From Candidatus Anderseniibacteriota bacterium (GTDB lineage: Bacteria > Patescibacteriota > Andersenbacteria > UBA10190): a DNA stretch of 64,000 nt. Each line of letters starts with the position of its first letter. The first letter of the stretch is position 1. Under the pieces are notes generated by a model. That model had not been told where the DNA came from. It searched no databases and was given only the letters and a program-made list of their open reading frames with translations. The stretch is taken from assembly GCA_016197005.1 (NCBI GenBank), contig JACPWO010000001.1, forward strand, positions 5,106 through 69,105. Reading direction: 5' to 3'. A program made the translations under genes and the position numbers. Positions 682-41,581 of this stretch are shown in pieces.

Positions 682-2488
682 GAAGAGAAATACTTACCCC
701 AAGAAGAAAGCCGGGCGAACGATACTGAAAGATGAGACGATGAGTGCCACCTACTTCTACTATCCAACCAACGCGGTTACTAATATTTTGCGCGGGTTGT
801 CCATTTACTTGCCACCCACTGGCGTAATTCGTATTGAGAATTACTGGTGTATCGGGTGGAGTTTCAACTTTCAATACAACTCGGTTTGGTGACCATTCTT
901 CAATAGTGTATGTTCCGCGTTCGTGCGTTTGTTCATTCTCTATATAGGCTGTGCCGTTGCCAATTTCGTCAGTTACCACTCGGACCGCTGGGGAAGGAGT
1001 AAGTACCGAGCAGTAATTCATACTGCCATATCCTTGGAGAATATCGGTGTACGCTCGAGAGTAGTCAACCTCATTATGACGTGTTTTGTAGGCAAAAGGT
1101 GAGTGTTGTAGTGGTTCCTTGGCGGGTGGTAAGGATTCCAGTGACCGCGGAAGAACAAATGCCTGCTCAGATAAGGGGTAGGACATAGTAAAGAGATCGA
1201 GAGCGATAAGAGCGAGGATTACGTAACTTATACCGCGCGTAGCAGCTTTCTTTTTGTTTTTTATTAAACTCTCCATACCAAATCCGGACAACAAAGAGAT
1301 TGGAATAACAGCGAATAGAACAACACGAGAAATATTCGATCGGGGGAACCACGAAGCTTGATCGAAGAAAGGTTTCAGGGTAGGCCCCGTCGAAGATAGG
1401 AGAATAGCCAGTATGGTACTCATACCAAGTCCAACGACAACGCGCCGCCGCCAATTAAAAATCACTCCGATACACGCCAAAACGGCGGCTACGGGCCCTA
1501 TATATGCCCCATATTCATGCCAACCACTCCCTTGATTTGGAATAACGTTCTCGACTCCATGTAGGTATCGTCCCAAGAAAATTTTGTGGAGTGATCCCAA
1601 CGTAGACGTAGAGCCGGCATACATTTGATCCTGAAACTGAGATAGCCATAGCAACACAGGGATAAGTTTTACCGCTGCCAGTCCTAACGCCCACAAACCA
1701 CTGTGAATATTAACCACCCAAGCATCTTTCTTTCGAGAAGTGAAAAATGGAAGGATAAGAAAAGCGAGAGCAGTGTACATCAGTAGGTAGATGCCGCCTT
1801 GGAAGAAAGTAAAGGCTAAGAAAATACCAGTAATAATATTCCACTTCGTAGATTTTTCGCGGTACGCAGCTAGCCAAGCCCAAAAGATCCACGGAATAAA
1901 CATGGCTGCAAATACATTGGGATGTCCTTCAACAATTTCCAGTAAGGTTACAGAACCAAATGTTGCTACCATACTTGCAACAAGTGAAGAGTACACAGAC
2001 AGGCCCAGACGCTTTCCTAAAAGGAGCATACCAACTCCGCCGACAGCGGTTGCTAGCCAAATAGCGAGTGGAAAGCCGTTTTCAATACCAAAGGCGAGCT
2101 CCACTAAGAAGGTAGGAGTGAAGAAACGAAATTCTGGATCGGCTAGGGCAGCAGTTCCTCCACAGATATATGGATTCCAGTGAGGAAGTTGGTGGTAGGT
2201 AAGAATTGTCTCGCGGTAAGAATGATGGAGAGAAAAATAATAATCCCAATCAGAGATTCCAAGCTGCCCGGTTGAAAACCAAAACCCGAGGGTGGCGAGC
2301 GGGGTAATAGCAACAATAATAAGAGCAGCTAACTGCCAACGCAGACGAGGAAAGAAACGGATAAGCAATATGCCGAGTAGAAATATGCCAGCAACAACCA
2401 CTCCTTGGTGCACGCCAAAGAGGGTATCCGGTGTTATCCTGAGCCACTCAAGGACGAACGTAGATACGGGATTCATAGAGGACGTCAT
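611..2488 (-). CDS. large polytopic membrane protein, family unassigned; N-terminal region is a paralog of 42271..44283
   Basis: 625 aa ORF with more than 10 hydrophobic helices and a roughly 150 aa hydrophilic C-terminal domain. It shares a Trp/Pro-rich N-terminal region with the 42271 protein. No catalytic motif recognised. Confidence 0.55.
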   Translation of the reverse strand: MTSSMNPVSTFVLEWLRITPDTLFGVHQGVVVAGIFLLGILLIRFFPRLRWQLAALIIVAITPLATLGFWFSTGQLGISDWDYYFSLHHSYRETILTYHQLPHWNPYICGGTAALADPEFRFFTPTFLVELAFGIENGFPLAIWLATAVGGVGMLLLGKRLGLSVYSSLVASMVATFGSVTLLEIVEGHPNVFAAMFIPWIFWAWLAAYREKSTKWNIITGIFLAFTFFQGGIYLLMYTALAFLILPFFTSRKKDAWVVNIHSGLWALGLAAVKLIPVLLWLSQFQDQMYAGSTSTLGSLHKIFLGRYLHGVENVIPNQGSGWHEYGAYIGPVAAVLACIGVIFNWRRRVVVGLGMSTILAILLSSTGPTLKPFFDQASWFPRSNISRVVLFAVIPISLLSGFGMESLIKNKKKAATRGISYVILALIALDLFTMSYPLSEQAFVLPRSLESLPPAKEPLQHSPFAYKTRHNEVDYSRAYTDILQGYGSMNYCSVLTPSPAVRVVTDEIGNGTAYIENEQTHERGTYTIEEWSPNRVVLKVETPPDTPVILNTNYASGWQVNGQPAQNISNRVGWIVEVGGTHRLIFQYRSPGFLLGVSISLLTVGVGTLSLLRARGRQTQPHQP

Positions 2489-4712
2489 CTTTTCCTTGAG
2501 AACGATATTTCGCTACTTCCTTCCATGGCTGAGGCATAGAAGTAATATACTCGCTTGAGCTCACATCAATAATAGTATGTATGTCATTGGTCAAGGGCTG
2601 TCCCTCTGCCAAGATCGTCACCTGCGATATAGGAAGATAAAAGGCAGCCGGTAAATTAAGTTCTTCAATAGCATAGCGCGGTTCAAAAGACCGAGCTGTC
2701 CGGGCCGCCCGGTATAAAACAGAATCTAGAGCTGCCGTGAGATTATGGGCATCAATATATTGATCGACTTTATTGAAAATAAGCAGACTACCAATGACAA
2801 AGGGTATGAGAGCGACGACCGGGAAAAAACGAGCGGCCGTAAAACGAACACTGCGAGGCATAAGCGCTGCTGCGATCATCAAGCATATTAAGGGATATGA
2901 CTGTTGGTAGTGCTTCGCAAACGGATGGAACCATATGGCGATAAGTATCTGTGAGGCAAGAACGATCGTCACTAAAATGCCACGCCAGCCGGCGCTTGCG
3001 AGAAAAGGCAGTGGTGCTGCAATTGTGATGCCAGTAATAAGAATGGGAATAAGTTTATTCATTTTTAGCGGATCACTGATTGTCAGCCAGATTGCCCATC
3101 CAATTACAGCAACCGCAATTACGCCAGCAACTATTTGTACTGATTGAGGAAATGACTCTTTTCGCTTCATCCAATAAATCCACCAGGCTAGCACTCCAAA
3201 AAGAGCTAGAGAAACGTACCCGCTGTCATACGGCAAAATGAGTTCTTCTTGTGTCCACGATCGCTTCCACATCGAAGAAATAATTGACCATGTTGAAATG
3301 GAAGCGTCAGAAAAGGCTTGGAATGAGTCAACGATTTGTAGTCGCTCTCCCTCAAAATAGGGTGTGTATACAGGGTTACCATAACGAACTGCATTGTTCA
3401 CAAAAAATGGAAGCACCAGGAAAAAAGCTGGTAAAAACATCCGCAGCAACACAAAAGAAGTTTTTTTAAGTGTGGAATGCTTGGCGCGTATCCCAATAAT
3501 TTCTTGACTGATCGTAGCGGCTAACAAAATAGCAGCTAGCAAAAAGCCTTCCTGTCTTGTCATAGCGGCATATCCGATCGTTATTCCAAAAACAATTTGC
3601 TGCCAGTGATGCCGACGATTGAAAAATAGAACCAGACTTAAAAGAAGGAGACAAGCATATACGGTATACGGCTCAGAACGTAGCGATGTTTCGAAGAAAT
3701 CTCGCTGGAATGCAAGTAAAGCCGCTGCGGTAAAAGCGGCCGGCCATGGGAGTAAAAGACTTCGGGCGAGAAGGTAGACGAGGATAATTGAGAAGGCAGC
3801 AGCGACACTGGAAATACTACGCATGTACGTGTGAGCATCGATCGTGGGATTTATTACTGCTGGAATGAGAAGAATTGGATATCCCGGTAGTCGTTTATCG
3901 AATTCAAACGGATTTTTGAATTTAGTTAGACGAGCAGCAATAGAAAGATAGTTGTAGGGATCTCCTCCGGACACGCCTCCCAAATTCTCCTCGATATCAA
4001 GCCGAAGATTTAACGTAAGTGCCGCTAAACAAATAACTATTCCCAATCCCACTGCTTTCTGCTTTTGTGCTGACAGATGCCGCCAACCAAATCTTCCAAC
4101 GAGGAGAGTAAAAATAATAAGGAGAGCTAACAGCGACCCACTTACTATAAGTTCTTCTTGGTACTTTTCTGCCAAAGTAGCAATTGATTGCCAGAGTGGT
4201 ACTTCCTCTTTAAGACTAACTGCGAACGTTCCTGCCTGTGGTCGCCCCTTCTCGTAGCGAATTAATGATGAAGGGGTGTAATTAGGATCATACCGCCAGC
4301 CAATGGCAGATGCTTGGGTAGCGTCAGGAACGGATACGTCAATACGAAGCTTTCCTGCTTCTGCTGCAATAGGTGGATCTAGGAGAATGGTAGCAAAGCG
4401 ATCGTCGCGAATTTCTGAAGAGGGAATAATGCCAGTAAAAATAGATTGGTCATCTGACAGACGAACTATTTCAATATGAATTGGAGATGGAGACCCCGTA
4501 TTACGAATGTCACTCATGATGAGCCCTAATCCCAATAGTGGTTTTTCAAAAGAAATTTCCTGCGACAAGGTACGATCGCCGAACAGAAGCCGGTGAGTGT
4601 TATATGAGTCGACGCCCTCGCTTATAATTGTTTGCCGTGAGGCTGGTAAGAAAGCTCCGATAATAGCAACGACAACGAGTAGAGTTATACTTAACACGAC
4701 ACGGGTGTTCAT
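2448..4712 (-). CDS. GT-C-fold membrane glycosyltransferase with N-terminal anchored extracytoplasmic domain
   Basis: 754 aa. It has an N-terminal signal-anchor helix, a roughly 200 aa soluble domain, then a multi-TM PMT_2/ArnT-like region (…AAMTRQEGFLLAAILLAA…). The architecture is shared with 12806, 15557 and 37755. Confidence 0.6.
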   Translation of the reverse strand: MNTRVVLSITLLVVVAIIGAFLPASRQTIISEGVDSYNTHRLLFGDRTLSQEISFEKPLLGLGLIMSDIRNTGSPSPIHIEIVRLSDDQSIFTGIIPSSEIRDDRFATILLDPPIAAEAGKLRIDVSVPDATQASAIGWRYDPNYTPSSLIRYEKGRPQAGTFAVSLKEEVPLWQSIATLAEKYQEELIVSGSLLALLIIFTLLVGRFGWRHLSAQKQKAVGLGIVICLAALTLNLRLDIEENLGGVSGGDPYNYLSIAARLTKFKNPFEFDKRLPGYPILLIPAVINPTIDAHTYMRSISSVAAAFSIILVYLLARSLLLPWPAAFTAAALLAFQRDFFETSLRSEPYTVYACLLLLSLVLFFNRRHHWQQIVFGITIGYAAMTRQEGFLLAAILLAATISQEIIGIRAKHSTLKKTSFVLLRMFLPAFFLVLPFFVNNAVRYGNPVYTPYFEGERLQIVDSFQAFSDASISTWSIISSMWKRSWTQEELILPYDSGYVSLALFGVLAWWIYWMKRKESFPQSVQIVAGVIAVAVIGWAIWLTISDPLKMNKLIPILITGITIAAPLPFLASAGWRGILVTIVLASQILIAIWFHPFAKHYQQSYPLICLMIAAALMPRSVRFTAARFFPVVALIPFVIGSLLIFNKVDQYIDAHNLTAALDSVLYRAARTARSFEPRYAIEELNLPAAFYLPISQVTILAEGQPLTNDIHTIIDVSSSEYITSMPQPWKEVAKYRSQGKDDVLYESRIYVRP

Positions 4713-4733
4713 AATTTGATAGTATAGCGGTAT

Positions 4734-6164
4734 ATGAGGACTGATAAAGCAACGATTTTTATACTTTTTACCCTCTTTTGCTTAGCTAATGTAGCATTTC
4801 TTAACCGTGTCCCAGGGTTACTTGGAGATGAAGCTTCGGAAGGTGAAAATGTGTATGAACTTCTTACGAATGATTCGATTACGGTAGTAGGCGAACGATC
4901 ATATATCGGCCCAGCGATTGATTACGTACGTGTGCCTTTTGCCGCTGTTTTTGGATATACAACTCTGGCACTGCGAATACCAATGTTCATATTCTCGGTC
5001 GCCACTTTTTGGTTAGCCTGGAGTGTCCTTAAAAAACAATTTGGGGAAACAACTGCACTGTATGCACTCACATTACTTACGTTTTCTCCTGTCTATGTAC
5101 TCTATCAACGTCTGGGTTGGGCAATTACACTTTTCCCGTTCTTTACATTTCTTATCATTTGGTTGGCACAGCAATCATGGCGAACAAAGTGGTTATGGGT
5201 TGGGGTAGCAGCCGGGTTAGGATTGGCTAATCATATTTTATTTTTACCGATACTGGTTGGATTTATTAGCGGATATATTACTTTTGCTGTGGTGCGGCGC
5301 CTGTTGTTATCCACTAACCGCTCAACTAGTTCCCAGTCATTGTGGCATACGGTTTTACTGGGCGTTATTACCGCATGCGTTGGCTTTTGGGCTGGATTTG
5401 GCATGCAATTTGCTGTGTTGCAATTGCATACGGACGATCAAGGTAGCATCAAGGCTACCACCCAGCTTTTCTCGGAACGGGTGAGCGATTTTATTAGTGC
5501 CGCTCCGCTGTACATCTCCGGCTCATCGTATGTTGCTCAATATATGGGACAGGAATTCACACCAAGTATCACATTACTAGTTGTAATCGTCTTATTAGTT
5601 CTTGTCGGTGTAGCAATTATTTTGAATTGGAGAAATCCGTACTTGTGGGCGTATGTTTTGGGGCTGGTGCTGCATCTCTCTGCCATGCTGTACATGATCG
5701 ATCGATTTAATTTAAGGTACTTCACAACATTTGCCCTAGGCATTTGGCTTCTGGCCGGTATGGGTTTGGGGAGCATATTACGCCGGGTACCGAAAATGCA
5801 GATCGGCGTACCACCTTTAGCGGTCCTGTTGCTTCTTTGGCTCGCAGGAGGTGTTCTTATCCCATTTCTTCACACCGGAGGAGCAGTCGCTGAGTTTTCG
5901 CTTGGTAATCGCACGAATGATGCTGCGGCGTTTGTAGACACCCGACCGCTCATTAGTTGTTTACGAGGGAAAGGTCCACTTTACTCGGAAAATATTCACA
6001 TCTGGAACCGATTACAATATCTAAGTCACTACTATGATGATTTAGTAGTAGTGCCTGAAGATCGAAAGAGAGAGGCAACAGTACAGGTGGCGTATATGGA
6101 TCCGAAAATATCGTATCGAGGAGGAATTTGTCCTGATCTGCAGCATTTCCAGGTGGGAAATTGA
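4734..6164 (+). CDS. GT-C-fold (PMT_2/ArnT-like) membrane glycosyltransferase
   Basis: 476 aa, multi-pass membrane protein with an acidic first loop (LLGDEASEGEN) and a PMT_2-like TM arrangement. The start is only 21 bp from the divergent upstream gene. Confidence 0.55.
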   Translation: MRTDKATIFILFTLFCLANVAFLNRVPGLLGDEASEGENVYELLTNDSITVVGERSYIGPAIDYVRVPFAAVFGYTTLALRIPMFIFSVATFWLAWSVLKKQFGETTALYALTLLTFSPVYVLYQRLGWAITLFPFFTFLIIWLAQQSWRTKWLWVGVAAGLGLANHILFLPILVGFISGYITFAVVRRLLLSTNRSTSSQSLWHTVLLGVITACVGFWAGFGMQFAVLQLHTDDQGSIKATTQLFSERVSDFISAAPLYISGSSYVAQYMGQEFTPSITLLVVIVLLVLVGVAIILNWRNPYLWAYVLGLVLHLSAMLYMIDRFNLRYFTTFALGIWLLAGMGLGSILRRVPKMQIGVPPLAVLLLLWLAGGVLIPFLHTGGAVAEFSLGNRTNDAAAFVDTRPLISCLRGKGPLYSENIHIWNRLQYLSHYYDDLVVVPEDRKREATVQVAYMDPKISYRGGICPDLQHFQVGN

Positions 6165-6618
6165 CAAAAAAGAATAAAGGATTATTGTGTTTGTAGCCGC
6201 GGCGAGTTCAGGCCCGCATTTGCCGCAGGTAAAGGAGTGGTTCTAGCTCGTGCTGGAATCACTCCCGAATCCAAGCCGTTCTTTTCAGGGCTAGAACGGA
6301 TAAGATAATATGGTGTATCGCTGTGGAGGGTACTAGGAATTTGATGTAATTGTTGCATCAAACCATCTACAGCAACCTCGATGGAGAAAAGGCTATGAAG
6401 AGCCTCAGCTGTTTTAAGAAAAATTGAAAACACCTCGGCGCCGGCCATCTTCCTCCACCTCGCCAAGGAGACACCATGAACCGTATTCGCGGTCCCCCGT
6501 GAGTACCCGCTGTCGCGTTGATCCGTTACCACAAGGTGTCGAGTGGACTTTGTCCCTCAGGTGATTCAGCACGCTAGGTCGTTGCTGTCACAATGAAAAT
6601 ACTCGTCACTTGTGCGCC

Positions 6619-6653
6619 GCCCCGCTGCTACATGCACGGGGCTTTCTTTTTTT
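6619..6653 (+). terminator. rho-independent terminator (GCCCCG, 12 nt loop, CGGGGC, then TTTCTTTTTTT)
   Basis: Read directly: a 6 bp GC stem at 6619-6624 / 6637-6642 followed by a U-tract. It lies at the 3' end of the roughly 450 nt non-coding stretch 6165..6677. Confidence 0.5.
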
Positions 6654-6677
6654 ATACAAAGCAGTAGTGTAGTGGGC

Positions 6678-15015: not shown

Positions 15016-15534
15016 TCAGTTGCGACATTGCGTCTCCGTACCACCACACACGCGATAGAGTGCTTTATCATCCTCATGAAGAATTCGATAATCAAATTTT
15101 CGTGTTTCGTCTTCATCAAAAGCAATCACATCATTTTGAGGAAGTTCCAAGCTTGCTTCGAAGAAATATCCCTTAGCTTCTCCTTTTCGTATGTCTGTAA
15201 CACAGTAACGATAGTACTGTGTATCTGACTCGCGAATATCGTGTGGGGAAACATCAATATATTGGCCCTTTACGATTGGTGATTGTGGTCCAAAAAACCA
15301 GCTGTCAACCGTGCGAGAATCGGTGCAATGAGGCTTTGATTTCGGGGGGGTGGGGTAATACTCGCGGTCGTTGTGATATACCTCTACTGCTTGTTTCAAA
15401 TTGGTTATGTCTTCTACCCGTAAGTGATCGCGTGCCTGGGTACGGGCGTAGAGAAAAGCTGGTATAAGAATAATTAAGGCAATCCCGGCGGCAATCCCGA
15501 TTGCCAATAGTTCCCATTTCAGGTCATGATTCAT
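15016..15534 (-). CDS. pseudopilin-like (GspG/type IV pilin-like N-terminal helix) small secreted protein, paralog of 36125..36631
   Basis: Start placed at Met80 of the long ORF (MNHDLKWELLAIGIAAGIALIIL), by analogy with the paralog. The ARTQARDHLRVEDITNLKQAVEVYHNDREYYPTP block resembles the GspG 'AR-D-L-AL-Y-DNG-YPT' region. SWFFGxQSP, IPHDVRES, YCxTDIR and YRVCGGT blocks are shared with 36125. The exact start is uncertain. Confidence 0.45.
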   Translation of the reverse strand: MNHDLKWELLAIGIAAGIALIILIPAFLYARTQARDHLRVEDITNLKQAVEVYHNDREYYPTPPKSKPHCTDSRTVDSWFFGPQSPIVKGQYIDVSPHDIRESDTQYYRYCVTDIRKGEAKGYFFEASLELPQNDVIAFDEDETRKFDYRILHEDDKALYRVCGGTETQCRN

Positions 15535-15556
15535 ACTATGTATATCCGTGTGAATT

Positions 15557-17971
15557 TTGGTACCAGCTCCAATGGTGCGATGGTATAACATCCAGTATAC
15601 CGGAGGCAAGCTGCTTACTTCTCGGTGGCTATGGGTGTCTGAGTTAGTTCTCGTATTAGGTGTTCTTTGGTTAAGTAGTCCCGTTGATATAATAGAAGAA
15701 GTTCGCTCACCCGGAGACATAAATTCTCGATTTTTGCTGGGAGATACCCGGACAGTTGGGCAAACATTCACAGCTATTCCTAATTTAAGGGTTCTTGAAT
15801 TACCAGTAGAGGTCGAGCCGGGCGCCCAGGGACCAATAATTCTCCATATTCGTCGTGATTATTTTGGCAGGGATCTTCGCAGTAGTGTTATCTTTCGTCC
15901 TGGGTCAGGAACTCAAACATTTGTTTTTGAACCTATCAACGTAGCGCGAGGGGAGACATTAATGTGGGTTTTAGAAAATCCCCATGATCCCGATCGCTCC
16001 ATTTCAGTGTTTCGAGAAATTGACGGCAGTCTTTATTTAGGCGGGGAGGCATATACCAAGGGAAAGGAATTGGCCGGAGATTTTCAATTTAAGATATTCG
16101 GAAGTCGTCCTTTAGTTACTGCGATTCCCTCTATGTTGGCCGGAGCTACAAATGAGTTCATCTTCCTTGATGATGGAGAGCGTCAAGCACTTATTGTTGG
16201 TTTAATCGTAGCGTTAATTGCTTGGCTTTTCGCCCCCAGGATTGTTCAACTTCTGCGGTGGTTTCTATACCGTCCGCGCCTAACACTTGTTTTATTAATG
16301 GTAGTTACGTTTGCGCTCCATATAACGACAGCGAAAACAATACCACTTAATAACGATGAAGGAGCCTATCTACAGGATGCTTTGCAAGCGCAAGAAGGGT
16401 TTGTCCCCGTTAAAGATTTCTTAACAAAGGGTCCGGTGTATGTGTATGTACTCTCAATCTGGACTAATCTTGTTCCATTTGCTGTGCCTTTTTTGCGCCT
16501 CTTAAGCACAGGGGCGTGGATTGCGGGAGTATTGCTTGTTTACCGTCTTTCTCGCGAGCTTGGATTATCGGTGGGGATTGCACTTACGGCGGCGGCCCTC
16601 CTTGCTCTTTCTCCAGCGGCAGTCTTGCTCAGTACGCCACTATTATTGCAATCAATCAGTGCAGTATTGGTTTTAGGCGGCCTTCTTCTTACCATTATGG
16701 GAGCAAAACGAGAAAATGTATGGTTCGTTGTTGTCTCGGCAATTTGTATGGTGGCTGCATATTTAACCCGCGCTAGTAGTATCCCTGCAGCAGTAGTTGG
16801 GCTCGGAATAATCCTATGGTTTTCCGAGCGCAATCGTTTCCGCTTAGCTGCCACGTACACGATAGTCGGATTACTTGTTACCGGATCCTTATTTACTGCT
16901 GCCACCTTGTACATGGGTCTTGAGAAAGCGACGGTCGCGTTCAATATTGAAGCACTCGCTGTATCGCAAGCGCGCGAAATAATAGAGACAACACCGGAAG
17001 AACCAATTGTTCGTTGGTCAATCGAAAGTGCGATGGTGTTGTGGAGTATGTCTCCCTGGTTTATCGCTGGTGTTCTCGCCCTTCCTTGGTTTTTGTTTAA
17101 GTACGTCTCGCGTTGGCAGACAATTCTTCTTCTTGCCCTTTGGCTGCTCCTAGCGTCTCATGTTTGGTTTCACCTTAATGACATGTCGTATTTCGTGGGT
17201 GCCCTTCATAAAGTTGCCCGAGTATTAGTCATTTTCTCGGTTATATTGCCGCTGTTTATAGCAGCGGTGCGTTGGTTACTTGATAAACCAGCACCCGCGT
17301 TGTCGCAGACACAAGCTCGGGTCCTTATTCTTATGCTGGCATGGATATTAATGCTGGGAATGATTTATCGCGTATGGAGCGACTTTCGACCAAATTACCT
17401 ATTAGAATTTTTGCCACCACTAGCACTGATAACTGCTCAATGGGGAAGGAATATCTGGGCAGCTATTACTACTCGTCCTCACCGGAATGCCACGCGCTTT
17501 GCGCTGGGGGCAGTAGTGCTTATTGCGGTTACTGGTGGGTTGGCTGGTTGGCGATTGGGACTACGGTTTCCGCCGAGTGGAACAATGGATCTTGGAGCAC
17601 TTAGCGACATTGTAAATGAAGTAAAAACGTATGTGCCGCCACGCGAGCCTCTCTTTACCGCACAATCAGCCGTCACCGCTTTAGCCCGACGGCCAATGAT
17701 ATTTCAGTATAGTCATTCTGGTTGGTATTTATATGAACGACAGGGACTGGTACCAACGGAACTTTTACAGTTATTTTTCCAAAGTCCTGAATCTATTACT
17801 TCGTATTTAGACAAAACCGTTCAATTCATCTTAGTTGATCGACGAACTCAGCAGGTGTACTTCGATACGTATGAAGAGCGGCAGCGAATTCTAGCTGAAG
17901 ATTTTGAGAGTATCGTTACGGTAAAAAACGGTGATGACACATTTGAACTTTATCGACGAAAGATCAACTAG
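15557..17971 (+). CDS. GT-C-fold membrane glycosyltransferase with N-terminal anchored extracytoplasmic domain
   Basis: 804 aa starting at TTG (or at ATG 15572). It has an N-terminal TM helix, a roughly 180 aa soluble domain (…TRTVGQTFTAIPNLRVLELP…) and more than 12 TM helices. The exact start is uncertain. Confidence 0.55.
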   Translation: MVPAPMVRWYNIQYTGGKLLTSRWLWVSELVLVLGVLWLSSPVDIIEEVRSPGDINSRFLLGDTRTVGQTFTAIPNLRVLELPVEVEPGAQGPIILHIRRDYFGRDLRSSVIFRPGSGTQTFVFEPINVARGETLMWVLENPHDPDRSISVFREIDGSLYLGGEAYTKGKELAGDFQFKIFGSRPLVTAIPSMLAGATNEFIFLDDGERQALIVGLIVALIAWLFAPRIVQLLRWFLYRPRLTLVLLMVVTFALHITTAKTIPLNNDEGAYLQDALQAQEGFVPVKDFLTKGPVYVYVLSIWTNLVPFAVPFLRLLSTGAWIAGVLLVYRLSRELGLSVGIALTAAALLALSPAAVLLSTPLLLQSISAVLVLGGLLLTIMGAKRENVWFVVVSAICMVAAYLTRASSIPAAVVGLGIILWFSERNRFRLAATYTIVGLLVTGSLFTAATLYMGLEKATVAFNIEALAVSQAREIIETTPEEPIVRWSIESAMVLWSMSPWFIAGVLALPWFLFKYVSRWQTILLLALWLLLASHVWFHLNDMSYFVGALHKVARVLVIFSVILPLFIAAVRWLLDKPAPALSQTQARVLILMLAWILMLGMIYRVWSDFRPNYLLEFLPPLALITAQWGRNIWAAITTRPHRNATRFALGAVVLIAVTGGLAGWRLGLRFPPSGTMDLGALSDIVNEVKTYVPPREPLFTAQSAVTALARRPMIFQYSHSGWYLYERQGLVPTELLQLFFQSPESITSYLDKTVQFILVDRRTQQVYFDTYEERQRILAEDFESIVTVKNGDDTFELYRRKIN

Positions 17972-25542: not shown

Positions 25543-26885
25543 GTGAGTCTGAATGTTGTCGTTTTAAGTCCGGCTCGTTTTTGACCGCTTGAAAATCGTT
25601 TCCAGGTAATTCGTAACCCATTGAAAATAGGACCGATAATTGTGAGGGGAATATGTTCAATAAGGATATGAGCAATCCGGGTGCTGCCGACAACAAATAG
25701 CCCAGAAATAATAAATTCAACGATATAACGAGATAGAGGTATATGATTCGGCTCGTACCCAAATGTAGGATTTTGTTTTCCAAGGAATCGACGCCATTGC
25801 ATTCGTATAAATGATCCACGCTTCTTAAAGTCAATCATGTGGCTATGCATTGAAACCACTTTCTCATAAGTAACTGGAGTTAATTTAACAAGATTATGCT
25901 GTTCCATTTCTTCGAGAAGACTTTTTCCTATAGTGGAACGGGCAAGAATAACGGAATATCCACCACGCTTCTTTTCATACTCCGGCGCCCAGGCGTCACC
26001 TACTGAAATGTCAGTTAATTCATTTGTAAAATCTACTGCTAAACGAGAGCTACGCTTCGTGATAAAGAATGGAATAAGATAGTTATAATAAAATTTCTCC
26101 GCGCGCAAAATCTTACCGCCACGAAGCCTTATCTCTAAGTACCCCGGCCACTCACCAGCGCGGTAAGAAAGCGAAGTTACTTGCCCAAGCGTAGCGTTAT
26201 TGGCTCGTAGGTAGCTGTTCAGCGCACCAAATCGCATTACTGTGCCAGTGTATGGCCCTAAAATATATTTAATGCTACGCACAGAGGAATGGTTCAGCTT
26301 TTGTAGCATTCGAATAGCTGCGACTTGATCCGGTAAGCCGACAAATGCAAGTGGACCCTCTTCTTTTCTTAATTTTTCCAAAATAGTTAGAGGTGCCGAT
26401 TCGGTATAAATGCTCCCGGCCGATGATAGTATTTCTTCGCGGGAACGAGCAATAATGGGCTCAACGAGATAAGGAATATCTTTTCGCAATCGTAGAACAA
26501 CAGCCCCGGTAATGCGTTTTGTTTGTAAAAGATATAGTAATGTCTGCGTCAGCACACCGCCGGATGCGGCTTCGATTCGCACGCTATCATCCAGAGCATA
26601 ACCAACGTACGCCTGCTTGAATTCACCAGTAAGCCAAGAAGAAGGATGTTTGCCGAAAATAAATGTATTCAAATTTGGATACGGCAGTCCCCGGTCCGGT
26701 AAAGCTTCCCAAATTGCCGGATCAAGATTGAGTTGTTCTTCCGGAACGGTCGGTTGTGGGGTTAGGTCGTGAGGCGGGTTTTTGAGTCGCAGTTGACCAC
26801 GTGACAACCCTACTTCTAAACCCGTGTGGCTTGAAAGTCCTTCCTTAATGATATTGTCTTGGATTTTTTGCCAGGTTTTGTCCAT
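25539..26885 (-). CDS. FrhB/FdhB-like (coenzyme F420 hydrogenase beta-subunit family) protein
   Basis: AASGGVLTQTLLYLLQTKRITGAVV matches the FrhB N-domain signature. No Fe-S Cys clusters were seen. The start is placed at the internal ATG (MDKTWQ…) to limit overlap; a GTG at 26933 is also possible. Confidence 0.4.
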   Translation of the reverse strand: MDKTWQKIQDNIIKEGLSSHTGLEVGLSRGQLRLKNPPHDLTPQPTVPEEQLNLDPAIWEALPDRGLPYPNLNTFIFGKHPSSWLTGEFKQAYVGYALDDSVRIEAASGGVLTQTLLYLLQTKRITGAVVLRLRKDIPYLVEPIIARSREEILSSAGSIYTESAPLTILEKLRKEEGPLAFVGLPDQVAAIRMLQKLNHSSVRSIKYILGPYTGTVMRFGALNSYLRANNATLGQVTSLSYRAGEWPGYLEIRLRGGKILRAEKFYYNYLIPFFITKRSSRLAVDFTNELTDISVGDAWAPEYEKKRGGYSVILARSTIGKSLLEEMEQHNLVKLTPVTYEKVVSMHSHMIDFKKRGSFIRMQWRRFLGKQNPTFGYEPNHIPLSRYIVEFIISGLFVVGSTRIAHILIEHIPLTIIGPIFNGLRITWKRFSSGQKRAGLKTTTFRLT

Positions 26886-27603
26886 CTTTTCGATAAATAA
26901 ATATTCTACGTAATGCGGTATGCCGACGAACACCTTCCCCGACTATTGCTTCTAATTTTTCACCCAATGCTAGTAACCACGGTGGACCTGCCGGTATAAA
27001 AACAGTAGTTTTCTCCTTAAGTTTAGTGCAGGCAGCTCCGGCAAAGGTCGATGTGATAAGACGCCTTTGTACCATTCGATGCGGGCCTTCAGAATGATGT
27101 AATCCTAGGACGGGCGCAAGTAAATGGATCGGTTCCCAGGCAACGGTTGGCGTTGTCAAGACGATAGCTCCTCCAGGTTTTGTAACACGTACTAGTTCTT
27201 GTATATATTTTCGCGGCCAAGGTACGTGTTCTAACGTTTCGTAACTTAACGTTACATCAAAGGTATTGTCAGCAACAGGAAGTGGAAGATTAGTAAATTG
27301 TTGGACAACCGCTGGAACATTCGCTGCCTGTAACCGTTTAGTCGCAACATCCTTAAAAAATTGAGAAACAACCAAACAGGTAAAAGAAAGGTTTTTATCT
27401 TTGTTGCGTTCATAGAAAAATTGCGAACCGATTCCTGTGCGAGCATCAATGTCTAACACATGAGCGCCAGACGGAATAACAAAAAGTGGAGCGCTATCTG
27501 TAAACCGCCGCTCGTAGGACGCCGTTTTGGCATTTATTTCGTCATAACCAACCGTTTTATCCCAATGTTGGGCCACATCTGCCAAACTCCAATTACGCTT
27601 CAT
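26845..27603 (-). CDS. class I SAM-dependent methyltransferase
   Basis: VLDIDARTGIGS…TLEHVPWP…VTKPGGAIVLTTP. Confidence 0.65.
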   Translation of the reverse strand: MKRNWSLADVAQHWDKTVGYDEINAKTASYERRFTDSAPLFVIPSGAHVLDIDARTGIGSQFFYERNKDKNLSFTCLVVSQFFKDVATKRLQAANVPAVVQQFTNLPLPVADNTFDVTLSYETLEHVPWPRKYIQELVRVTKPGGAIVLTTPTVAWEPIHLLAPVLGLHHSEGPHRMVQRRLITSTFAGAACTKLKEKTTVFIPAGPPWLLALGEKLEAIVGEGVRRHTALRRIFIYRKDGQNLAKNPRQYH

Positions 27604-27621
27604 GTGTGTTACTATACGCGC

Positions 27622-29196
27622 ATGTTAGGGTTGCGCGCCAGACTCAGAGATCCTGGTTTTTGGATAGATTTTTTAGTCGTTGCTTTACTGGGGAACTTCG
27701 GAATTATTTTTCGGACAATGCTTGTGCAGAACCGAATGCGAATGCCGGCAGGAGACGCCTTTAATTTTATCAATGGTGCGACTGAGTTGCTGTATGGCAA
27801 GTATCCACCTCAAGAGAAACGGCCCCCATTTTTTTCCTTCCTGATAGCCATTCTGGACTCGTTTATTCAAGATCCTATCGATACTTCGCACATCATTATA
27901 GTAATTAGCGGAGTTTTGGGGATTATATTTATGTACTTTATTGGACGTTATTTTGGTGTTTACCGACCAGTCATGGCTGGATTTTCTTTTCTTGCTCTTT
28001 TTGACCCGCTTCTTGCCCTTTATGGAGTTCGTCCACTTTCGCAAGGGCTATTTTTTGCGTTACTGACGCTAACAGTACTCCTGGCCCTTCATATAAAAAC
28101 ATCCCGCTGGTACTTGGCTGCTATGGCTTTATCCTTTACGGCATTGGCGCTTACTCGGCAGGAAGGTGTTCTCATATCTGCGGTTGTTTGGGCTCTCCTG
28201 TTTTTAAAGTTACCGTGGAAGAAAGTACTTCTCGTCGCGCTAATGAGTTGCGTATTTGTAGCTCCTTGGTTTGTGGTGATTGCGCGCTCAACCGGCTCAC
28301 CTTTTAAATTTCCCGGCAGTGAAGCGTACGTAGAAGAATTCGCGAGCGGGGAGAGGGGAACAAAGGATCCTCGGGTAGTGTTGGCAGGGATTGCGGAAAT
28401 AAGTATGGAAACGTGGGCGATTGCCTGGAATTCTTCTGTTCTTGTTACTCCGGAAGGAGAGGAAAGTGCTGACAATACACCTGACGCGATTGCTGCGTTT
28501 TTGGTAGCGTTGTTGGCAATTATTGGGCTCGGCTGGATGACTGTTCGCCGCCCAAAAGATATGGCAATATTTTTTGCTGCTTTTGCTCTCATTGTAGTAA
28601 TTGCTGCCTGGTACCGGGCGTCGGGAAAATATGCGTCGCCATTTATCAGTACCTGGTACATTTGTGCCGCGGCCGGGCTTACCGCCGTCAGCGAAATAGT
28701 ACGGCGGCTTTACTCAGGGGCAGCCTTTAGCGGTCGCCTTGGAGCATATATTGCCACGATAGCTATCGTTTGGCCCCTGGCCCCCGCTCTCGCTATAAGT
28801 GGCACCAGCTATATCGTGTCAGAGAGAGGAATGAACTGGGCTCGGGTGCAAGCAGTCCGTTATGTGAGAACATTTGAAGCTCCCGTACTAATACCCGACT
28901 TTACCCTATTGAGCCGGTCATACTTTGGGAAAGTTGGCGAAAAAACCGAACCACCTCACCTGGGGATATATCTAATAAATGTTTCTGAGCAATCCGTGGA
29001 GGAACAGAGGACTTATATTATTTCGAAAGGAGCACAATACATTATTGACGATGGAACGGAAGGTATTTTGAAGCTCACGCAATACTTGCAAGAACGCAAA
29101 GAAATTACTTTAGAAAAACTATTTGTTTCGTATCTTGAGGGTGACCAGACGGGTCAACTTATATACGTCTATCGGTTTTCTCCGCGGTGGCGCTAG
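27622..29196 (+). CDS. GT-C-fold (PMT_2-like) membrane glycosyltransferase
   Basis: The start is moved to ATG 27622 (MLGLRARL…), which avoids overlap with the divergent gene. It is multi-TM and carries the FTALALTRQEGVL block shared with the 2448 protein. Confidence 0.55.
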   Translation: MLGLRARLRDPGFWIDFLVVALLGNFGIIFRTMLVQNRMRMPAGDAFNFINGATELLYGKYPPQEKRPPFFSFLIAILDSFIQDPIDTSHIIIVISGVLGIIFMYFIGRYFGVYRPVMAGFSFLALFDPLLALYGVRPLSQGLFFALLTLTVLLALHIKTSRWYLAAMALSFTALALTRQEGVLISAVVWALLFLKLPWKKVLLVALMSCVFVAPWFVVIARSTGSPFKFPGSEAYVEEFASGERGTKDPRVVLAGIAEISMETWAIAWNSSVLVTPEGEESADNTPDAIAAFLVALLAIIGLGWMTVRRPKDMAIFFAAFALIVVIAAWYRASGKYASPFISTWYICAAAGLTAVSEIVRRLYSGAAFSGRLGAYIATIAIVWPLAPALAISGTSYIVSERGMNWARVQAVRYVRTFEAPVLIPDFTLLSRSYFGKVGEKTEPPHLGIYLINVSEQSVEEQRTYIISKGAQYIIDDGTEGILKLTQYLQERKEITLEKLFVSYLEGDQTGQLIYVYRFSPRWR

Positions 29197-34539: not shown

Positions 34540-34613
34540 GGGCTGCACTGTACCACAATATAGCCGTAGCTGCTGCATTGACGGACCGACGAACGTAATG
34601 AGAGAATTCTCGC

Positions 34614-36631: not shown

Positions 36632-37758
36632 TAGATGTTAGACGAGCTCCCATCGGTTACCCCGGGAGTTACTCGGTATGCCGCTTCATATCTTGCCGTA
36701 ATTGTTGGCCAATTAAATAACTTTGCTCGTTCCCGCCCTTTGTTGCCCAGCTCTTCTCGTAAAGTTTTGTTATTTATGAGCTTTAATACGGCCTCTCGAA
36801 TTTGTTGTGGATTATTTGGCTCAACTAGGAGGGCAGTATTCTCTACAACCTCAGGTAACGCACTAACATTCGTTGTAATAATAGCGAGGCCAGCACTCAT
36901 TGCTTCAAGTAGAACCACCCCAAACGACTCATTCTGAGACGTAAAGATAAAAATAGAAGAGGTTTCGTACAGATAATGGAGCTGATCATTTTGAACGAAG
37001 CCGGTAAAGTTCACACGAGGCTTTATATTCTCGGCCTGTTTCTTTAGTTGTGGTAAATATGGACCATCTCCAGCGACAATGATTTCCCAGTCCAGATCCA
37101 TATCTTTTATTGCCTCTAGAAAATATTGCACTCCCTTGCGCCGAAAGATACGACTAACAATAAGAATCTTGCGTTCTCGGATGGAAGGAGCAATCAGTTC
37201 CATCCGAAAGCCATTTGGGATAACGGTTACAGGAATATTCGCAAATGTTTGAATGTGATGCTTTAGATACTCTGAAGGCGCAATCAATGTATCAATGCTA
37301 CGGACAACTTTTCGCCACATAGGATGGAGTAATCGATGAAGAAAACGAAATCGGTCGGGATTGTATAACGGTATGTCGGAACCGTGAGCGGTTACTACTA
37401 ATGGCACTTTTGTTCGCCATTTCAGAACAGCACCGACAACGCCAGTCGGGAAAATGAAATGAGCGTGAATAAGGTCATACTTATGTTTCCTCATTCGTTG
37501 CAAACAGAACGGTATAGCTGAGGCAACGTATGTTGCCATTTCGTAGGGGTAACAAATTTCGTTTTTGCGACGCAAGGAAAGTACACGAAATATGTTAATT
37601 CCATCTACCACTTCAAATCGCTTAGTGCCCCGCGCATGCATCGTAACCACATCCACTACATGACCACGACGTACTAATTCGCGACACAGTTCAAAACTTA
37701 CAGGAGCACCGCCACCCCCAATAGGCGGAAACTCGTAATTCAGCATAAGTATTCTCAT
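36631..37758 (-). CDS. GT4-family glycosyltransferase
   Basis: MRILMLNYEFPPIGGGG…; C-domain …ESFGVVLLEAMSAGLAIITT. Confidence 0.7.
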   Translation of the reverse strand: MRILMLNYEFPPIGGGGAPVSFELCRELVRRGHVVDVVTMHARGTKRFEVVDGINIFRVLSLRRKNEICYPYEMATYVASAIPFCLQRMRKHKYDLIHAHFIFPTGVVGAVLKWRTKVPLVVTAHGSDIPLYNPDRFRFLHRLLHPMWRKVVRSIDTLIAPSEYLKHHIQTFANIPVTVIPNGFRMELIAPSIRERKILIVSRIFRRKGVQYFLEAIKDMDLDWEIIVAGDGPYLPQLKKQAENIKPRVNFTGFVQNDQLHYLYETSSIFIFTSQNESFGVVLLEAMSAGLAIITTNVSALPEVVENTALLVEPNNPQQIREAVLKLINNKTLREELGNKGRERAKLFNWPTITARYEAAYRVTPGVTDGSSSNI

Positions 37759-40043
37759 CGCTTCAGGCGCAGCAAAGTAAATGGGCGAGTGCCTTCATTC
37801 TCTATTTCCACTTCAACTTCATATAAATTTTTAATGGCCTCATCAATACGTGGGTGACGACGATAGGTATCAGCCAACAATTTTCCATCAAGCACCCATT
37901 CAACGTTGCCGGCTTCAATATCGTCGGCAATAGGGTCAAACAGCGCATAGTAACGAGGATCTGGTTCGCCTCGAAATGTTGGTTCAAGCCAGGAAGGATG
38001 AGACACAGGATAGGCAAGCTGTTTGTGTGCCATTAGGGGAACCAGAACGGAAGCAGCCAGGATACGTTCGTCATCAGCAACATGATTCTTTAAATATTCG
38101 ATGCTATCTCTCACGGCGCCTTGAGCGATTGTTCCGGCGTACGGGTAGTCAAAAGGGTAATAAGTCCACGGTGGAAGTAGGTAAGCTAATAAAAGTAATG
38201 CCACCGCTGCCGCTATGCTTCGGCGATACCACAAAGATTCAAGAACAGATGCTAGTCCTAGGCCAGCAAATAAAACTAAGGCGGGGATAAATTCGGCTAA
38301 ATACTTGTCGTTAACCTTGTGAAAAATTGCGTATGTCAAAAGAGGAGGTACTAAAAATGCCATTGCATCCATTATGGTTCTACGTTTGTATTTTCCGCCG
38401 ACGCCGACGCCGACAAGCAGAAAACCTAAAGCCAGTCCAAAAAATACCATGGACGAAATAGGGTAATGAGGAAAGATTTCATCACCCTGCCAAGCCGGAA
38501 AGAATAGTAAGGCAAATAGGGCAGCGAAAATGGAATATAATATCCGTCGCTTTATCGGGAAGCCATTCAACACCAGCAAAGCTGGCAACATCAACAAACT
38601 CAACCGAAGTGCGGGCTGACGCCAAAGTAAAAATTTAGCAATCCAGCCTTCTTCAGCCGACGCCTCAAAAAATTCGATAAATAAACCACCAATTTGATAT
38701 TTCACCAGGATTTCGGGAAAGAGAGCTAGAAATGCAGTCCCACCCGCGACAAAGGGAGCGGCTAGCCAGACTAGTCTCCGACTAAATTCTTTTAACGAAC
38801 TATCTCGAAGTAAAATTGCAATCCCAACTAGCCAAAATATTGCGCTCCAGCGGACCGCTGTGGCGAGACCAGTAAGCCCAGCAATGAGAACAAGTTGCCA
38901 CCATGTGATGCGACCTTTATTTCGATAAAATAAGGTAAGCGCAATGGCAGCCATAAGCGGGAGCATCATAAACTGCTCCGTCATGATAATGGAGGTGTAT
39001 GACATAACGGTAGGTACAAAAAAACCAACCAGTAACGTTATCCACCCAGCTGTTTTACCGCCGATCTGGCGAGCATTATATGACAACAGTGAGAGTGCAC
39101 CAACGCAGCTAATAATTATAAGGAGGCGGATTGTAACAAGTGAGTCAATTCCAATAATAGCAGTCCACACACGAAGTGTGCTTATAAGGAGCGGAGTCTT
39201 CCAAAAATGTGGATCGTGAATGTTATACAAAATTGAGTCATACACATAAAATTGTTCGTCGTTTACGAGCGGAAGATTTGATGCCATCCACACCCGCCCA
39301 GTGACCGCCCCAATAACTAATAGAACAAAGAGGAAAATAAGGGAGCGCTTTGGAATTACTTTAGGTATCTGCAAAAATGTACCCAAAAAGGCGAGAAGAA
39401 GTATGACAATTGTGCTAACAACGACTATACTAGCTGCTCGTACATAGTCCTGCCGCTCGCTGACTGTCTGATCTACCCAACGAGGGTGCCGTGAAGCAAG
39501 AATGAGAGATAAGGTAAAGCCTTGGGGTGTAGGTGCATTACTGTCGTCTCGAATTGTTGTTGCTTCAAAACTACCTGGCGGGTATTCGTCGGCAACTATT
39601 GCTACTACTGTATCCGAAGTAGGTAGTAATGAAAGGTGAACGGTGTATGAAGAACCCGTTTCCAATCCAGGTGGCAGTGGCCACGTTGCTCCAGATATTC
39701 CTTGGGTACCAACAGTCAGAAGCTCAGGGCGGCCGTTTCCCAGTGAGAAAGTTTTGCCGGAATGAGACTCGGTAAGATTTGCAGTAATTCGATGTCCCTC
39801 ATCTGGTGTATCAAGTGCAATAAATAACGCGTCGATATCTTCACTGGGAATGGTAATTTTTTGCTCAAAGGATGTTTGTGGCGTGAGGTGAGCTAGCACG
39901 CCTCGTCCAGTTGACCCGCTTACGAGCTTAAGTTGAGGGTAAACAGCATATAAAAAAATGCCTAGGAGGGTGAGGCCGGAGACAAGCAAAACCATGATTA
40001 CAATTTCTCGAATGTATCCCAAATTCCACGTAGTATTGGACAT
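37755..40043 (-). CDS. GT-C-fold membrane glycosyltransferase with N-terminal anchored extracytoplasmic domain
   Basis: 762 aa with an N-terminal TM helix, a roughly 200 aa soluble domain, and then more than 12 TM helices. Confidence 0.6.
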   Translation of the reverse strand: MSNTTWNLGYIREIVIMVLLVSGLTLLGIFLYAVYPQLKLVSGSTGRGVLAHLTPQTSFEQKITIPSEDIDALFIALDTPDEGHRITANLTESHSGKTFSLGNGRPELLTVGTQGISGATWPLPPGLETGSSYTVHLSLLPTSDTVVAIVADEYPPGSFEATTIRDDSNAPTPQGFTLSLILASRHPRWVDQTVSERQDYVRAASIVVVSTIVILLLAFLGTFLQIPKVIPKRSLIFLFVLLVIGAVTGRVWMASNLPLVNDEQFYVYDSILYNIHDPHFWKTPLLISTLRVWTAIIGIDSLVTIRLLIIISCVGALSLLSYNARQIGGKTAGWITLLVGFFVPTVMSYTSIIMTEQFMMLPLMAAIALTLFYRNKGRITWWQLVLIAGLTGLATAVRWSAIFWLVGIAILLRDSSLKEFSRRLVWLAAPFVAGGTAFLALFPEILVKYQIGGLFIEFFEASAEEGWIAKFLLWRQPALRLSLLMLPALLVLNGFPIKRRILYSIFAALFALLFFPAWQGDEIFPHYPISSMVFFGLALGFLLVGVGVGGKYKRRTIMDAMAFLVPPLLTYAIFHKVNDKYLAEFIPALVLFAGLGLASVLESLWYRRSIAAAVALLLLAYLLPPWTYYPFDYPYAGTIAQGAVRDSIEYLKNHVADDERILAASVLVPLMAHKQLAYPVSHPSWLEPTFRGEPDPRYYALFDPIADDIEAGNVEWVLDGKLLADTYRRHPRIDEAIKNLYEVEVEIENEGTRPFTLLRLKR

Positions 40044-40048
40044 ACGGT

Positions 40049-41581
40049 ATGCTCACATTACACCATCCTATGCCTCTCGATTTCAAACATGTTTCGTGGT
40101 TTCAACTTTTGCTTACTACTGGGCTTGTATTTGCAATTATACTTCCTCGGTTTATTTCTTTGGGATTTGTCTATACCACGGATGAGCGATTGTGGATTGC
40201 TCGTGGGGCAGATTTTATTCAGGCCTTCAGTAATTTTCACTTTGCAGATACTGCCATTGCCTTTCAACCAGGCGTTACTACAGCTTGGTTGGCAGCAGTT
40301 ACCACGCACTTTCATTCTTTAGCGGCAACCCAAGCGTCAGTAGCGGCTGCTACGAGTATCCTGCTTCTTATCATTTCTTACTTCTTTGTTAGATTATTCG
40401 GTTGGCAATGGGGGATGATCACGGCGTATGCAGTGGCAATGAACCCTGTTCTCATTGCGCATAGCCGAGTTATTCATACTGATGCCCTACTTGCTCTCTT
40501 TTTGCTCGCTTGTGCGCTTTCGCTTTTTTATTCGCTAGATTCACAGCTCACATCTAGCCAAGCGAGGCGCTATCTCATTGCTAGCGGGATATTAGCGGGC
40601 CTTGCTCTCCTGACTAAAATATTTGCCTTATTCGCGATCCTACCACTTCTTCTCATTCTCATTGGCAAAACCTGGCAAGCAAAGAGAAGCCTAAAATCGG
40701 TTGCACAAGAGTTGGGTATTTGGATCGGAGTTGCGGCCCTTACTGTGTTTATAGTGTGGCCGGCACTTTGGACTCATGCCTGGGGAACAGGAATGTATAT
40801 TTGGGAAAATGTTACGCAATATTCTTCCGGACGACGAGTAGGTGAGGTCTCTACTTCTTGGTGGTTCTATTTGCGAGAAATATATGTTCGTACCAGCATA
40901 GTCACGACCATACTACTACCGTTTGGTATTTTAGCTGTTGTCTCAAAATGGCGACGACAACCAGTATTTGTCCTTCTGTCGCTACTTTTAACCAGTGCGT
41001 TTTATGTGCTACTACTACACACCGGTGAGGATCGAGATGTAAGATATCTCATTATTTTTCTGTTGACACTGGATATCTGGGCGGTCTTCGGCCTTCGTTT
41101 CATAATTGAATTTTTTAGAGGCGAGAGAACTCATAAAATTGTCTCTTATACACTTATTAGTGCCTTTCTTTTGTACCTGGGTTTCCAAACAATCCACTTG
41201 CACCCGTACTACCTTGCCCATTACAACTATGCCTACCAGATGCCGGCGAGATACAAGATTGGGTGGGGTGAGGGATTAGAGCAAGCAGCTATGTACTTAG
41301 CCGCAAGAGATCCGAAGGCAGAGATTGCGGTGTTCTATGCTTCCGTATTCGAATATGCATGGGAGAAATATGGCGGGGTAGGAACCGTTGGTGGTTCCGA
41401 TCATTTATCCGAGTCAACTGATTATCTAGTTATATCGCGGGCTATGTTTGAGCGAGCACCTGACTCTATCCAAACGGAACTTGTAAATCGCTACTTAAGC
41501 GAAGATAGTCCGAAGCCAATCCATACGATTACTATTAATGGGTTACCGTATATTTGGATTTTTGATGTTCGACAACAATAA
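40049..41581 (+). CDS. GT-C-fold glycosyltransferase (DE-motif) with conserved C-terminal domain family
   Basis: Loop-1 motif TTDERLW; HSRVIHTDALL; GWGEGLEQ; …ISRAMFERAPDS…HTITINGLPYIWIF. Confidence 0.65.
   Translation: MLTLHHPMPLDFKHVSWFQLLLTTGLVFAIILPRFISLGFVYTTDERLWIARGADFIQAFSNFHFADTAIAFQPGVTTAWLAAVTTHFHSLAATQASVAAATSILLLIISYFFVRLFGWQWGMITAYAVAMNPVLIAHSRVIHTDALLALFLLACALSLFYSLDSQLTSSQARRYLIASGILAGLALLTKIFALFAILPLLLILIGKTWQAKRSLKSVAQELGIWIGVAALTVFIVWPALWTHAWGTGMYIWENVTQYSSGRRVGEVSTSWWFYLREIYVRTSIVTTILLPFGILAVVSKWRRQPVFVLLSLLLTSAFYVLLLHTGEDRDVRYLIIFLLTLDIWAVFGLRFIIEFFRGERTHKIVSYTLISAFLLYLGFQTIHLHPYYLAHYNYAYQMPARYKIGWGEGLEQAAMYLAARDPKAEIAVFYASVFEYAWEKYGGVGTVGGSDHLSESTDYLVISRAMFERAPDSIQTELVNRYLSEDSPKPIHTITINGLPYIWIFDVRQQ

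Follow-up and report, generated by a model that had tools for sequence, protein, structure and literature searches.

Warman et al. reportedly described in 2021 a bidirectional promoter architecture in which a −10 element is common to both DNA strands. The divergent start sites of such promoters are mostly 18 bp apart, separations of 10 and 23 bp being frequent too, and the two orientations of the polymerase are mutually exclusive (PMC10268837, PMC12825309). In the leaderless "group C" genomes of GeneMarkS-2, the motif TANNNT lies 6-8 nt from the start codon (PMC6028130), and the criterion by which a promoter is told apart from a ribosome-binding site is whether the motif also precedes operon-internal genes (PMC6028130). 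This motif has been validated experimentally in Deinococcus radiodurans, where it accompanies ~30% of ORFs and where expression is disrupted if the motif is moved closer to the start codon (PMC12340547), and leaderless-rich bacteria typically show weak conservation of the −35 element (PMC3848588). One subgroup of Parcubacteria, furthermore, is without the anti-Shine-Dalgarno (anti-SD) motif (PMC9297842). The mechanism considered here combines leaderless genes that have an adjacent −10 element with bidirectional promoters that share one, and is in that sense known; what appear to be new are the lineage, the apparent absence of Shine-Dalgarno (SD) use in any gene class, and the coincidence of predicted bidirectional start sites with start codons. 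A full-text literature search for leaderless mRNAs in CPR/Patescibacteria, Saccharibacteria and Parcubacteria found no description of them.

The DNA under study, hereafter the window, is a 64-kb stretch from the metagenome-assembled genome (MAG) of an uncultivated groundwater member of Candidatus Andersenbacteria (CPR/Patescibacteria) with a GC content of ~45%, and the genomes closest to it are MAGs of Andersenbacteria and other CPR at 41-51% protein identity. Exact protein matches put it on contig JACOTL010000006.1 (492 kb) of assembly GCA_016178385.1, and the protein that begins at 27622 is deposited under the name Candidatus Andersenbacteria. It holds a dense and very large cell-envelope glycosylation cluster, comprising at least nine GT-C membrane proteins (PMT/PMT_2-like, 450-800 aa) together with many GT2, GT4 and GT9 enzymes, methyltransferases, DegT aminotransferases and MurJ/Wzx-like flippases. 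Independent gene calls (NCBI/Logan) span essentially the whole window and supplied the 49 called starts used for statistics, 46 of which are ATG. The survey took in this glycosylation-rich window and ~0.25 Mb of related loci (~0.3 Mb in total); the gene sets of the relatives are crude ORF calls, and 129 genes from 14 related loci entered the spacer comparison.

Two of the tight divergent gene pairs in the window carry the argument. In pair 1, the minus-strand gene (2448..4712, ATG at 4712..4710, found both as an ORF and by the independent gene call) encodes a 754-aa membrane protein for which a Pfam search gave no match. Its M1 aligns with M1 of the ortholog at locus L005, and its N-terminus is conserved at L008 and L016, where the aligned orthologs begin only a few residues away. 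The plus-strand gene (4734..6164) encodes a 476-aa PMT_2-family membrane glycosyltransferase (Pfam PF13231), and an invariant LHRVPGL motif follows the deduced start of 14 orthologs at ~21-27 residues; TANNNT stands at N6-8 (that is, with a spacer of 6-8 nt before the start codon) in 9 of these 14. This 476-aa gene is, as a separate matter, a tandem duplicate in several relatives (loci L011, L012, L013 and L017). The two ATGs are 22 bp apart, and the 21-bp gap between them (4713..4733, aatttgatagtatagcggtat) contains the entire predicted bidirectional promoter core, a pseudo-symmetric TAGTATA at 4720..4726 that is common to both strands by direct reading and in the spacer table. On the plus strand, TAGTAT (4720-4725) stands at N8 from ATG 4734 and is preceded by TG at 4717-4718 (TGaTAGTAT-N8-ATG); the minus strand, gcTATACTatcaaattATG, has TATACT (4726..4721) at N8 and an overlapping TACTAT (4724..4719) at N6. 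With the usual distance of 7 nt from the −10 element to the start site, transcription would be predicted to begin at 4732-4734 on the plus strand and at 4714-4712 on the minus strand. The symmetric core predicts start sites 4732 and 4714, each 2 nt 5' of its ATG, and since both of its hexamers stand at N8 the canonical prediction is for leaders of 2 nt rather than for strictly leaderless transcripts; the overlapping minus-strand TACTAT, on the other hand, predicts a start site exactly at 4712.

Pair 3 is tighter still, its ATGs being 19 bp apart across a gap of 18 bp (27604..27621, by direct reading). The minus-strand gene (26845..27603, ATG at 27603..27601) encodes a 252-aa SAM-dependent methyltransferase (Pfam Methyltransf_11) whose first residues, MKRNW, form the conserved N-terminus at the orthologous loci L023 and L024, the translated upstream sequence not being conserved. 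The plus-strand gene (27622..29196) encodes a 524-aa membrane protein, HYR90_03095, with its start placed by homologs: a longer ORF, 27460..29196, was rejected, six homologs (511-529 aa) beginning no more than three residues from the column of its M55, which is ATG 27622. The common pseudo-symmetric core, again read directly on both strands, is TACTATA at 27610..27616, giving TACTAT (27610-27615) at N6 on the plus strand, with TG at 27607-27608 (TGtTACTAT-N6-ATG), and TATAGT (27616..27611) at N7 from the minus-strand ATG. Transcription is predicted to begin at 27622, which is the A of the plus-strand ATG, and at 27604/27603 on the minus strand, 27604 being 1 nt 5' of the minus-strand ATG. This arrangement is retained in relatives whose pair-3 proteins are only 47-48% identical to those of the window: in the 18-bp gap of the L024 ortholog TAGTATA stands at offset 6, as the core does in the window, the L023 ortholog has a 20-bp gap with TATTATA, and at both loci the plus-strand hexamer stands at N6, the minus-strand hexamer at N7, and the plus-strand promoter keeps its TGn extended −10.

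What pairs 1 and 3 have in common is the form 5'-TANNNTA-3', in which −11A and −7T of one strand base-pair reciprocally with −7T and −11A of the other, and a predicted separation of 18 bp between the divergent start sites (4714/4732 in pair 1, 27604/27622 in pair 3). The sequence-only reading, which had drawn attention to these gene pairs, did not notice that a single core could serve both strands. Divergent gaps cluster at 20-27 bp, and 14 divergent pairs of the window and the related loci, with gaps of 18-27 bp, form the tight set. Within it, TANNNT occurs at N5-8 on both strands in 10 of the 14 pairs and on at least one strand in 13, with the caveat that a match on the second strand is partly automatic when an A follows TANNNT. 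The full TANNNTA core is present in 11 of the 14 tight gaps against an expected 0.55 in random segments and 2.4 in composition-matched shuffles, of which 5000 were run without ever giving as many as 11. Rfam and tRNA scans of the whole window gave no match, and no rRNA gene lies within the 64 kb; given the empty Rfam and tRNA scans, structured RNA does not explain the short gaps.

One rival view is that the hexamers are a product of chance, thrown up by short AT-rich intergenic DNA and by mis-assigned starts. Such a view draws on the fact that one of the six starts of the three pairs first singled out (15557, a TTG) is doubtful, that pair 2 fails on closer inspection, and that the range of 4-8 nt and the "TATA(C/G)T-like" definition used in the sequence-only reading were loose. 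Against it stand the independent gene calls and homolog alignments that back the other five starts, the number of TANNNTA cores never attained by shuffling the gaps, and an enrichment of spaced TANNNT over matched controls at p=2e-11. Chance is already largely refuted by the statistics, the homologs and the shuffles, and the residual likelihood allotted to it is almost negligible.

TANNNT at a spacer of 6-8 precedes 16 of the 49 called starts in the window (33%), as against 44 (3.8%) of a control set of 1148 spurious ORFs in the window, each taken from the first ATG after an in-frame stop (binomial p=2e-11), and 3.9% of all other ATGs in the window. Among window genes with a divergent upstream neighbour the figure is 10 of 20. 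Spacer 6 alone accounts for 19% of window starts and for 19-20% in the relatives (129 genes, 14 loci), compared with 1-2% of internal ATGs; in the ~0.3 Mb surveyed, the hexamer-to-start distances thus show a sharp peak at spacer 6. In-frame upstream stops were considered as a source of this peak and rejected, the first-ATG-after-stop controls reaching merely their 3.8%. When 201 genes are pooled, 63 carry the motif (31%), distributed over spacers 6, 7 and 8 as 38, 14 and 11 genes; T1, A2 and T6 are conserved, TATACT (10) and TAGTAT (5) head the list of hexamers, and TATAAT is common as well. All four genes of pairs 1 and 3 have the spacing of group C genomes (4712(-) at N6/N8, 4734(+) at N8, 27603(-) at N7, 27622(+) at N6), and neither gene of pair 2 does. 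Judged by these motif positions, approximately one third of the genes seem to be transcribed right from the start codon.

Position within the operon is what distinguishes a promoter from a signal on the mRNA. In the window, 12 of 24 operon-first genes carry TANNNT against 4 of 25 operon-internal genes (p=0.012), and in the relatives 39 of 95 against 4 of 37 (p=5e-4), which amounts to 50% and 41% of first genes and to 16% and 11% of internal ones. On this motif count, about half of the operon-first genes appear to be without a 5' leader. The same depletion weighs heavily on the proposal that TANNNT is no promoter at all and acts on the mRNA as a ribosome-binding signal other than SD, like the motif of GeneMarkS-2 group B. 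That proposal is attractive insofar as the motif sits at a normal ribosome-binding-site distance, SD motifs are absent, and a subgroup of Parcubacteria without the anti-SD motif is on record (PMC9297842). A ribosome-binding motif would nonetheless be expected neither to be so strongly depleted at internal genes nor to be placed symmetrically on both strands of tight pairs, and the conserved positions and most frequent variants of TANNNT (TATACT, TAGTAT, TATAAT) correspond to a −10 element. The absence of the motif before most internal genes, combined with the conservation of T1, A2 and T6, favours a −10 element, and translation by such a motif is very improbable.

Two further features of the motif distribution deserve mention in their own right. 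A second, lesser enrichment lies at spacer 0, where TANNNT touches the ATG: 9-11% of starts have it, the figure for control first-ATGs being 1.4% (window and L004-L017); in the relatives 9 of the 15 spacer-0 cases have an in-frame TAA or TAG two codons upstream. Likewise, TANNNT-N6-ATG is found at genes that overlap or closely follow a gene on the same strand, as TAGGAT before 46539(+) and TAGTAT before 30391(-), and these two may be internal leaderless promoters situated in, or just past, the 3' end of the preceding gene.

The counterpart of this distribution is a general lack of SD signals. The sequence-only reading had noted that the minus-strand ATGs leave no room for an SD sequence, and direct reading bears this out and extends it, no SD-like sequence being present upstream of any of the six starts of pairs 1-3. 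SD-like 4-mers are not enriched, occurring at 12% of starts and 9% of control ATGs in the window and at 14.6% against 9.5% in the relatives; enrichment was sought in every gene class and found in none, the genes that remain once those with a spaced motif are set aside included. The sole 5-mer SD-like site in the window (gaggtGGAGGaagATG) precedes an 88-aa ORF without a Pfam match, 6182..6448(-), which adjoins the longest divergent intergenic region in the window (6449-6677, 229 bp, where Rfam was likewise empty). Operon-internal genes (20259-60673) largely have neither SD nor −10 motifs, and 9 of 25 internal genes share exactly 4 nt (ATGA) with the gene upstream, with five more at gaps of −1, +1 or +3 nt. 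As these genes are without either signal and mostly overlap an upstream stop, coupled translation is the probable mode of their expression. The lack of SD motifs fits the loss of the anti-SD reported for the Parcubacteria subgroup (PMC9297842).

In this SD-less genome start calling is unstable. The NCBI and Logan starts differ at four genes (33805-34578, 36631-37758, 47693-48289 and 48262-48310), with lengths under the discordant calls of 244 versus 257 aa, 375 versus 371 aa and 178 versus 198 aa, and longest-ORF calls give yet other starts at these genes. More broadly, gene finders trained on SD signals may produce systematically unreliable start calls when applied to CPR MAGs.

A more serious competitor is the view that the mRNAs are leadered after all, being transcribed from promoters within the neighbouring genes and translated from SD-less, unstructured leaders of the Bacteroidota type, with the hexamers close to the starts incidental. 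A scan for a full −35/−10 sigma-70 consensus detected no promoter and no TTGACA-like −35 at pairs 1 and 3, a result this view can claim for itself, and in the pooled motif alignment only a weak T-rich signal appears where a −35 would fall. It gains further from the roughly half of operon-first genes, both pair-2 genes among them, that have no spaced hexamer and must therefore be served by another route, and from some good −10 matches ~28 nt upstream of a start, such as TACAAT before 19461(-). It would not, however, predict a sharp peak at spacer 6, which is unexpected from composition alone, nor the conservation of the hexamer offset in orthologous pairs despite ~47% protein identity, nor 11 TANNNTA cores in 14 tight gaps where shuffles give 2.4. 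Leadered transcripts are on this balance an unlikely explanation, although a less remote one than either chance or ribosome binding.

Pair 2 shows where the pattern stops. Its minus-strand gene (15016..15534, ATG at 15534..15532, supported by the independent gene call) encodes a small membrane protein of 172 aa, and its start aligns with those of five homologs; the alternative GTG at 15771 was rejected on the homolog alignment and the gene calls. The plus-strand gene encodes a weakly PMT_2-like membrane protein of 799 aa, at 15572..17971 according to the independent gene calls, and its start is uncertain among TTG 15557, ATG 15572 (the choice of the gene callers) and GTG 15575. The gaps of 21, 22 and 18 bp given in the sequence-only reading stand for pairs 1 and 3; that of pair 2 depended on the TTG, and a start at ATG 15572 makes it 37 bp rather than 22. 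In the same way, start codons checked against homologs and independent gene calls hold up at 4712(-), 4734(+), 15534(-), 27603(-) and 27622(+), leaving 15557(+) doubtful. All three minus-strand hexamers it had reported (TATACT-N8, TATACA-N4 and TATAGT-N7) can be read in the sequence as described, yet the TATACA box of pair 2 (15539..15544, minus strand) lacks the T at −7 and lies too near the ATG, and an alternative GATATA at N6 lacks that T too. TANNNT is absent at N5-9 on either strand, the TANNNTA core is absent, and pair 2 is alone among the 14 tight pairs in being without a correctly spaced TANNNT on either strand. Matches from the sigma-70 consensus scan at this pair (CATGAT, AATCAT) were set aside as lying inside coding sequence and misplaced for both starts. 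Leaderless mRNAs from overlapping divergent promoters, originally proposed for all three pairs, agree with spacing, conservation and starts at pairs 1 and 3; for pair 2, which has no spaced TANNNT, the interpretation fails, and the earlier observation is because of such errors of detail only partly confirmed.

The orthologs of pair 2 at L005 are 84 bp apart and have one hexamer each, TAGACT-N6-GTG for the minus-strand ortholog and TATGCT-N6-ATG for the plus-strand ortholog, the latter protein beginning 7 residues ahead of the aligned block. The promoter of pair 2 may have decayed in the window, or may be organised differently there. Homologs of the 172-aa membrane protein also recur opposite a PMT-like glycosyltransferase in tight divergent pairs elsewhere (L016 12799-12827, L006 20150-20175 and L011 ~14652-14706), which hints at a functional link between this membrane protein family and the PMT-like glycosyltransferases. 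A fourth pair in the window, which escaped the sequence-only reading, is closer still: 37755..40043(-) and 40049..41581(+) are separated by 5 bp (40044..40048) at a near-palindrome, CATACGGTATG. The only TANNNT matches there are TAGTAT at N12 on the plus strand and TAATGT at N11 on the minus strand, both within the first codons of the partner, and they would give leaders of 5-6 nt with overlapping 5' ends. The start at 40049(+) is perhaps mis-called, as homologs of the plus-strand protein begin near M8 (40070).

In light of these results, the best explanation, to which a probability of approximately 75% is assigned, is that about half of the operon-first genes would be transcribed into leaderless mRNAs and that at pairs 1 and 3 one TANNNTA core would work as a two-way −10 element. 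For the two pairs themselves, leaderless mRNAs arising from shared −10 bidirectional promoters are a predicted outcome that is well supported computationally. A housekeeping sigma factor would recognise its −10 element (TANNNT, chiefly TATACT or TAGTAT) 6-8 nt before the ATG, and because of that distance RNA polymerase would begin either on the first base of the ATG or no more than ~2 nt from it. An mRNA made in this way would have its AUG at the 5' terminus and would be translated by the leaderless route, with no SD contact. In pairs 1 and 3 one 7-bp pseudo-palindrome would act as the −10 element for both strands, and since only one polymerase at a time could occupy the common core, the two genes would be expected to be rivals for it. 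A −35 element or upstream contacts, if any, would fall within the opening codons of the opposite gene, and on the plus strands the TGn extended −10 could replace a −35.

The implications reach past the individual pairs. A broader proposition, tentatively held and put at somewhat below even odds, is that Andersenbacteria, and perhaps the anti-SD-less Parcubacteria subgroup too, have abandoned SD initiation: first genes would be leaderless as often as in Deinococcus-Thermus, which has the highest frequency on record; translation of internal genes would be coupled; and many divergent pairs would rely on bidirectional promoters of 18-24 bp in which one 7-bp −10 core sets both the transcription and the translation starts. 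If true, this SD-free scheme would be a minimal architecture for gene expression, tied to the ribosome reduction of CPR bacteria, and, if confirmed, it would be the functional counterpart of the reported losses of the anti-SD and of ribosomal proteins in Parcubacteria. CPR/Patescibacteria, or at least Andersenbacteria, would upon confirmation join Actinobacteria and Deinococcus-Thermus as leaderless-rich lineages, and would do so without SD back-up. Similarly, tight divergent pairs in which one symmetric −10 element sets the transcription and translation starts of two genes may offer a compact design for promoter biology and synthetic biology. The scheme brings no new mechanism and makes no open question newly testable.

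Among the closest known systems are the group C genomes of Actinobacteria and Deinococcus-Thermus, which the locus, with its predicted start sites, resembles. As in that group, TANNNT stands 6-8 nt before operon-first starts, the −35 is weak or absent and ATG is dominant, and the share of genes with the motif, 33% in the window and 31% in window and relatives together, is close to the ~30% of ORFs in Deinococcus-Thermus (PMC12340547). It differs in belonging to CPR/Patescibacteria with ~45% GC rather than to the high-GC Actinobacteria or Deinococcus, and in that group C genomes use SD at their remaining genes whereas no class is enriched for SD here. Bacteroidota of group B likewise have no SD motifs upstream of their genes, but the group B motif is A-rich and precedes internal as well as first genes, whereas the motif here has the form of a −10 element and is found largely at first genes. 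Archaeal group D genomes offer a parallel in their high fraction of leaderless operon-first genes (in the present case a predicted one) and in their compact divergent intergenic regions, although in archaea the TATA box is found ~26 nt ahead of the start, whereas here the element is of the bacterial −10 type and stands at a distance of ~10 nt.

The tight pairs, finally, resemble bidirectional promoters of the Warman type (PMC10268837, PMC12825309) in their TANNNTA core, in the reciprocal −11A and −7T, in the predicted start-site separation of 18 bp, and in the exclusive binding of polymerase that follows from geometry; the 22-bp gap of one relative (L014) represents a second class that matches the 23-bp configuration. 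The T favoured at −18 is not clearly evident here: the plus-strand base is G at 27604 and A at 4714, and a T would come only with start sites moved to the ATGs themselves. The bidirectional promoters of E. coli and Salmonella produce transcripts with leaders or antisense transcripts, unlike those predicted here. A departure from the Warman type is that each of the two predicted start sites coincides with a start codon, with the consequence that a single gap of 18-21 bp would give rise to two leaderless mRNAs.
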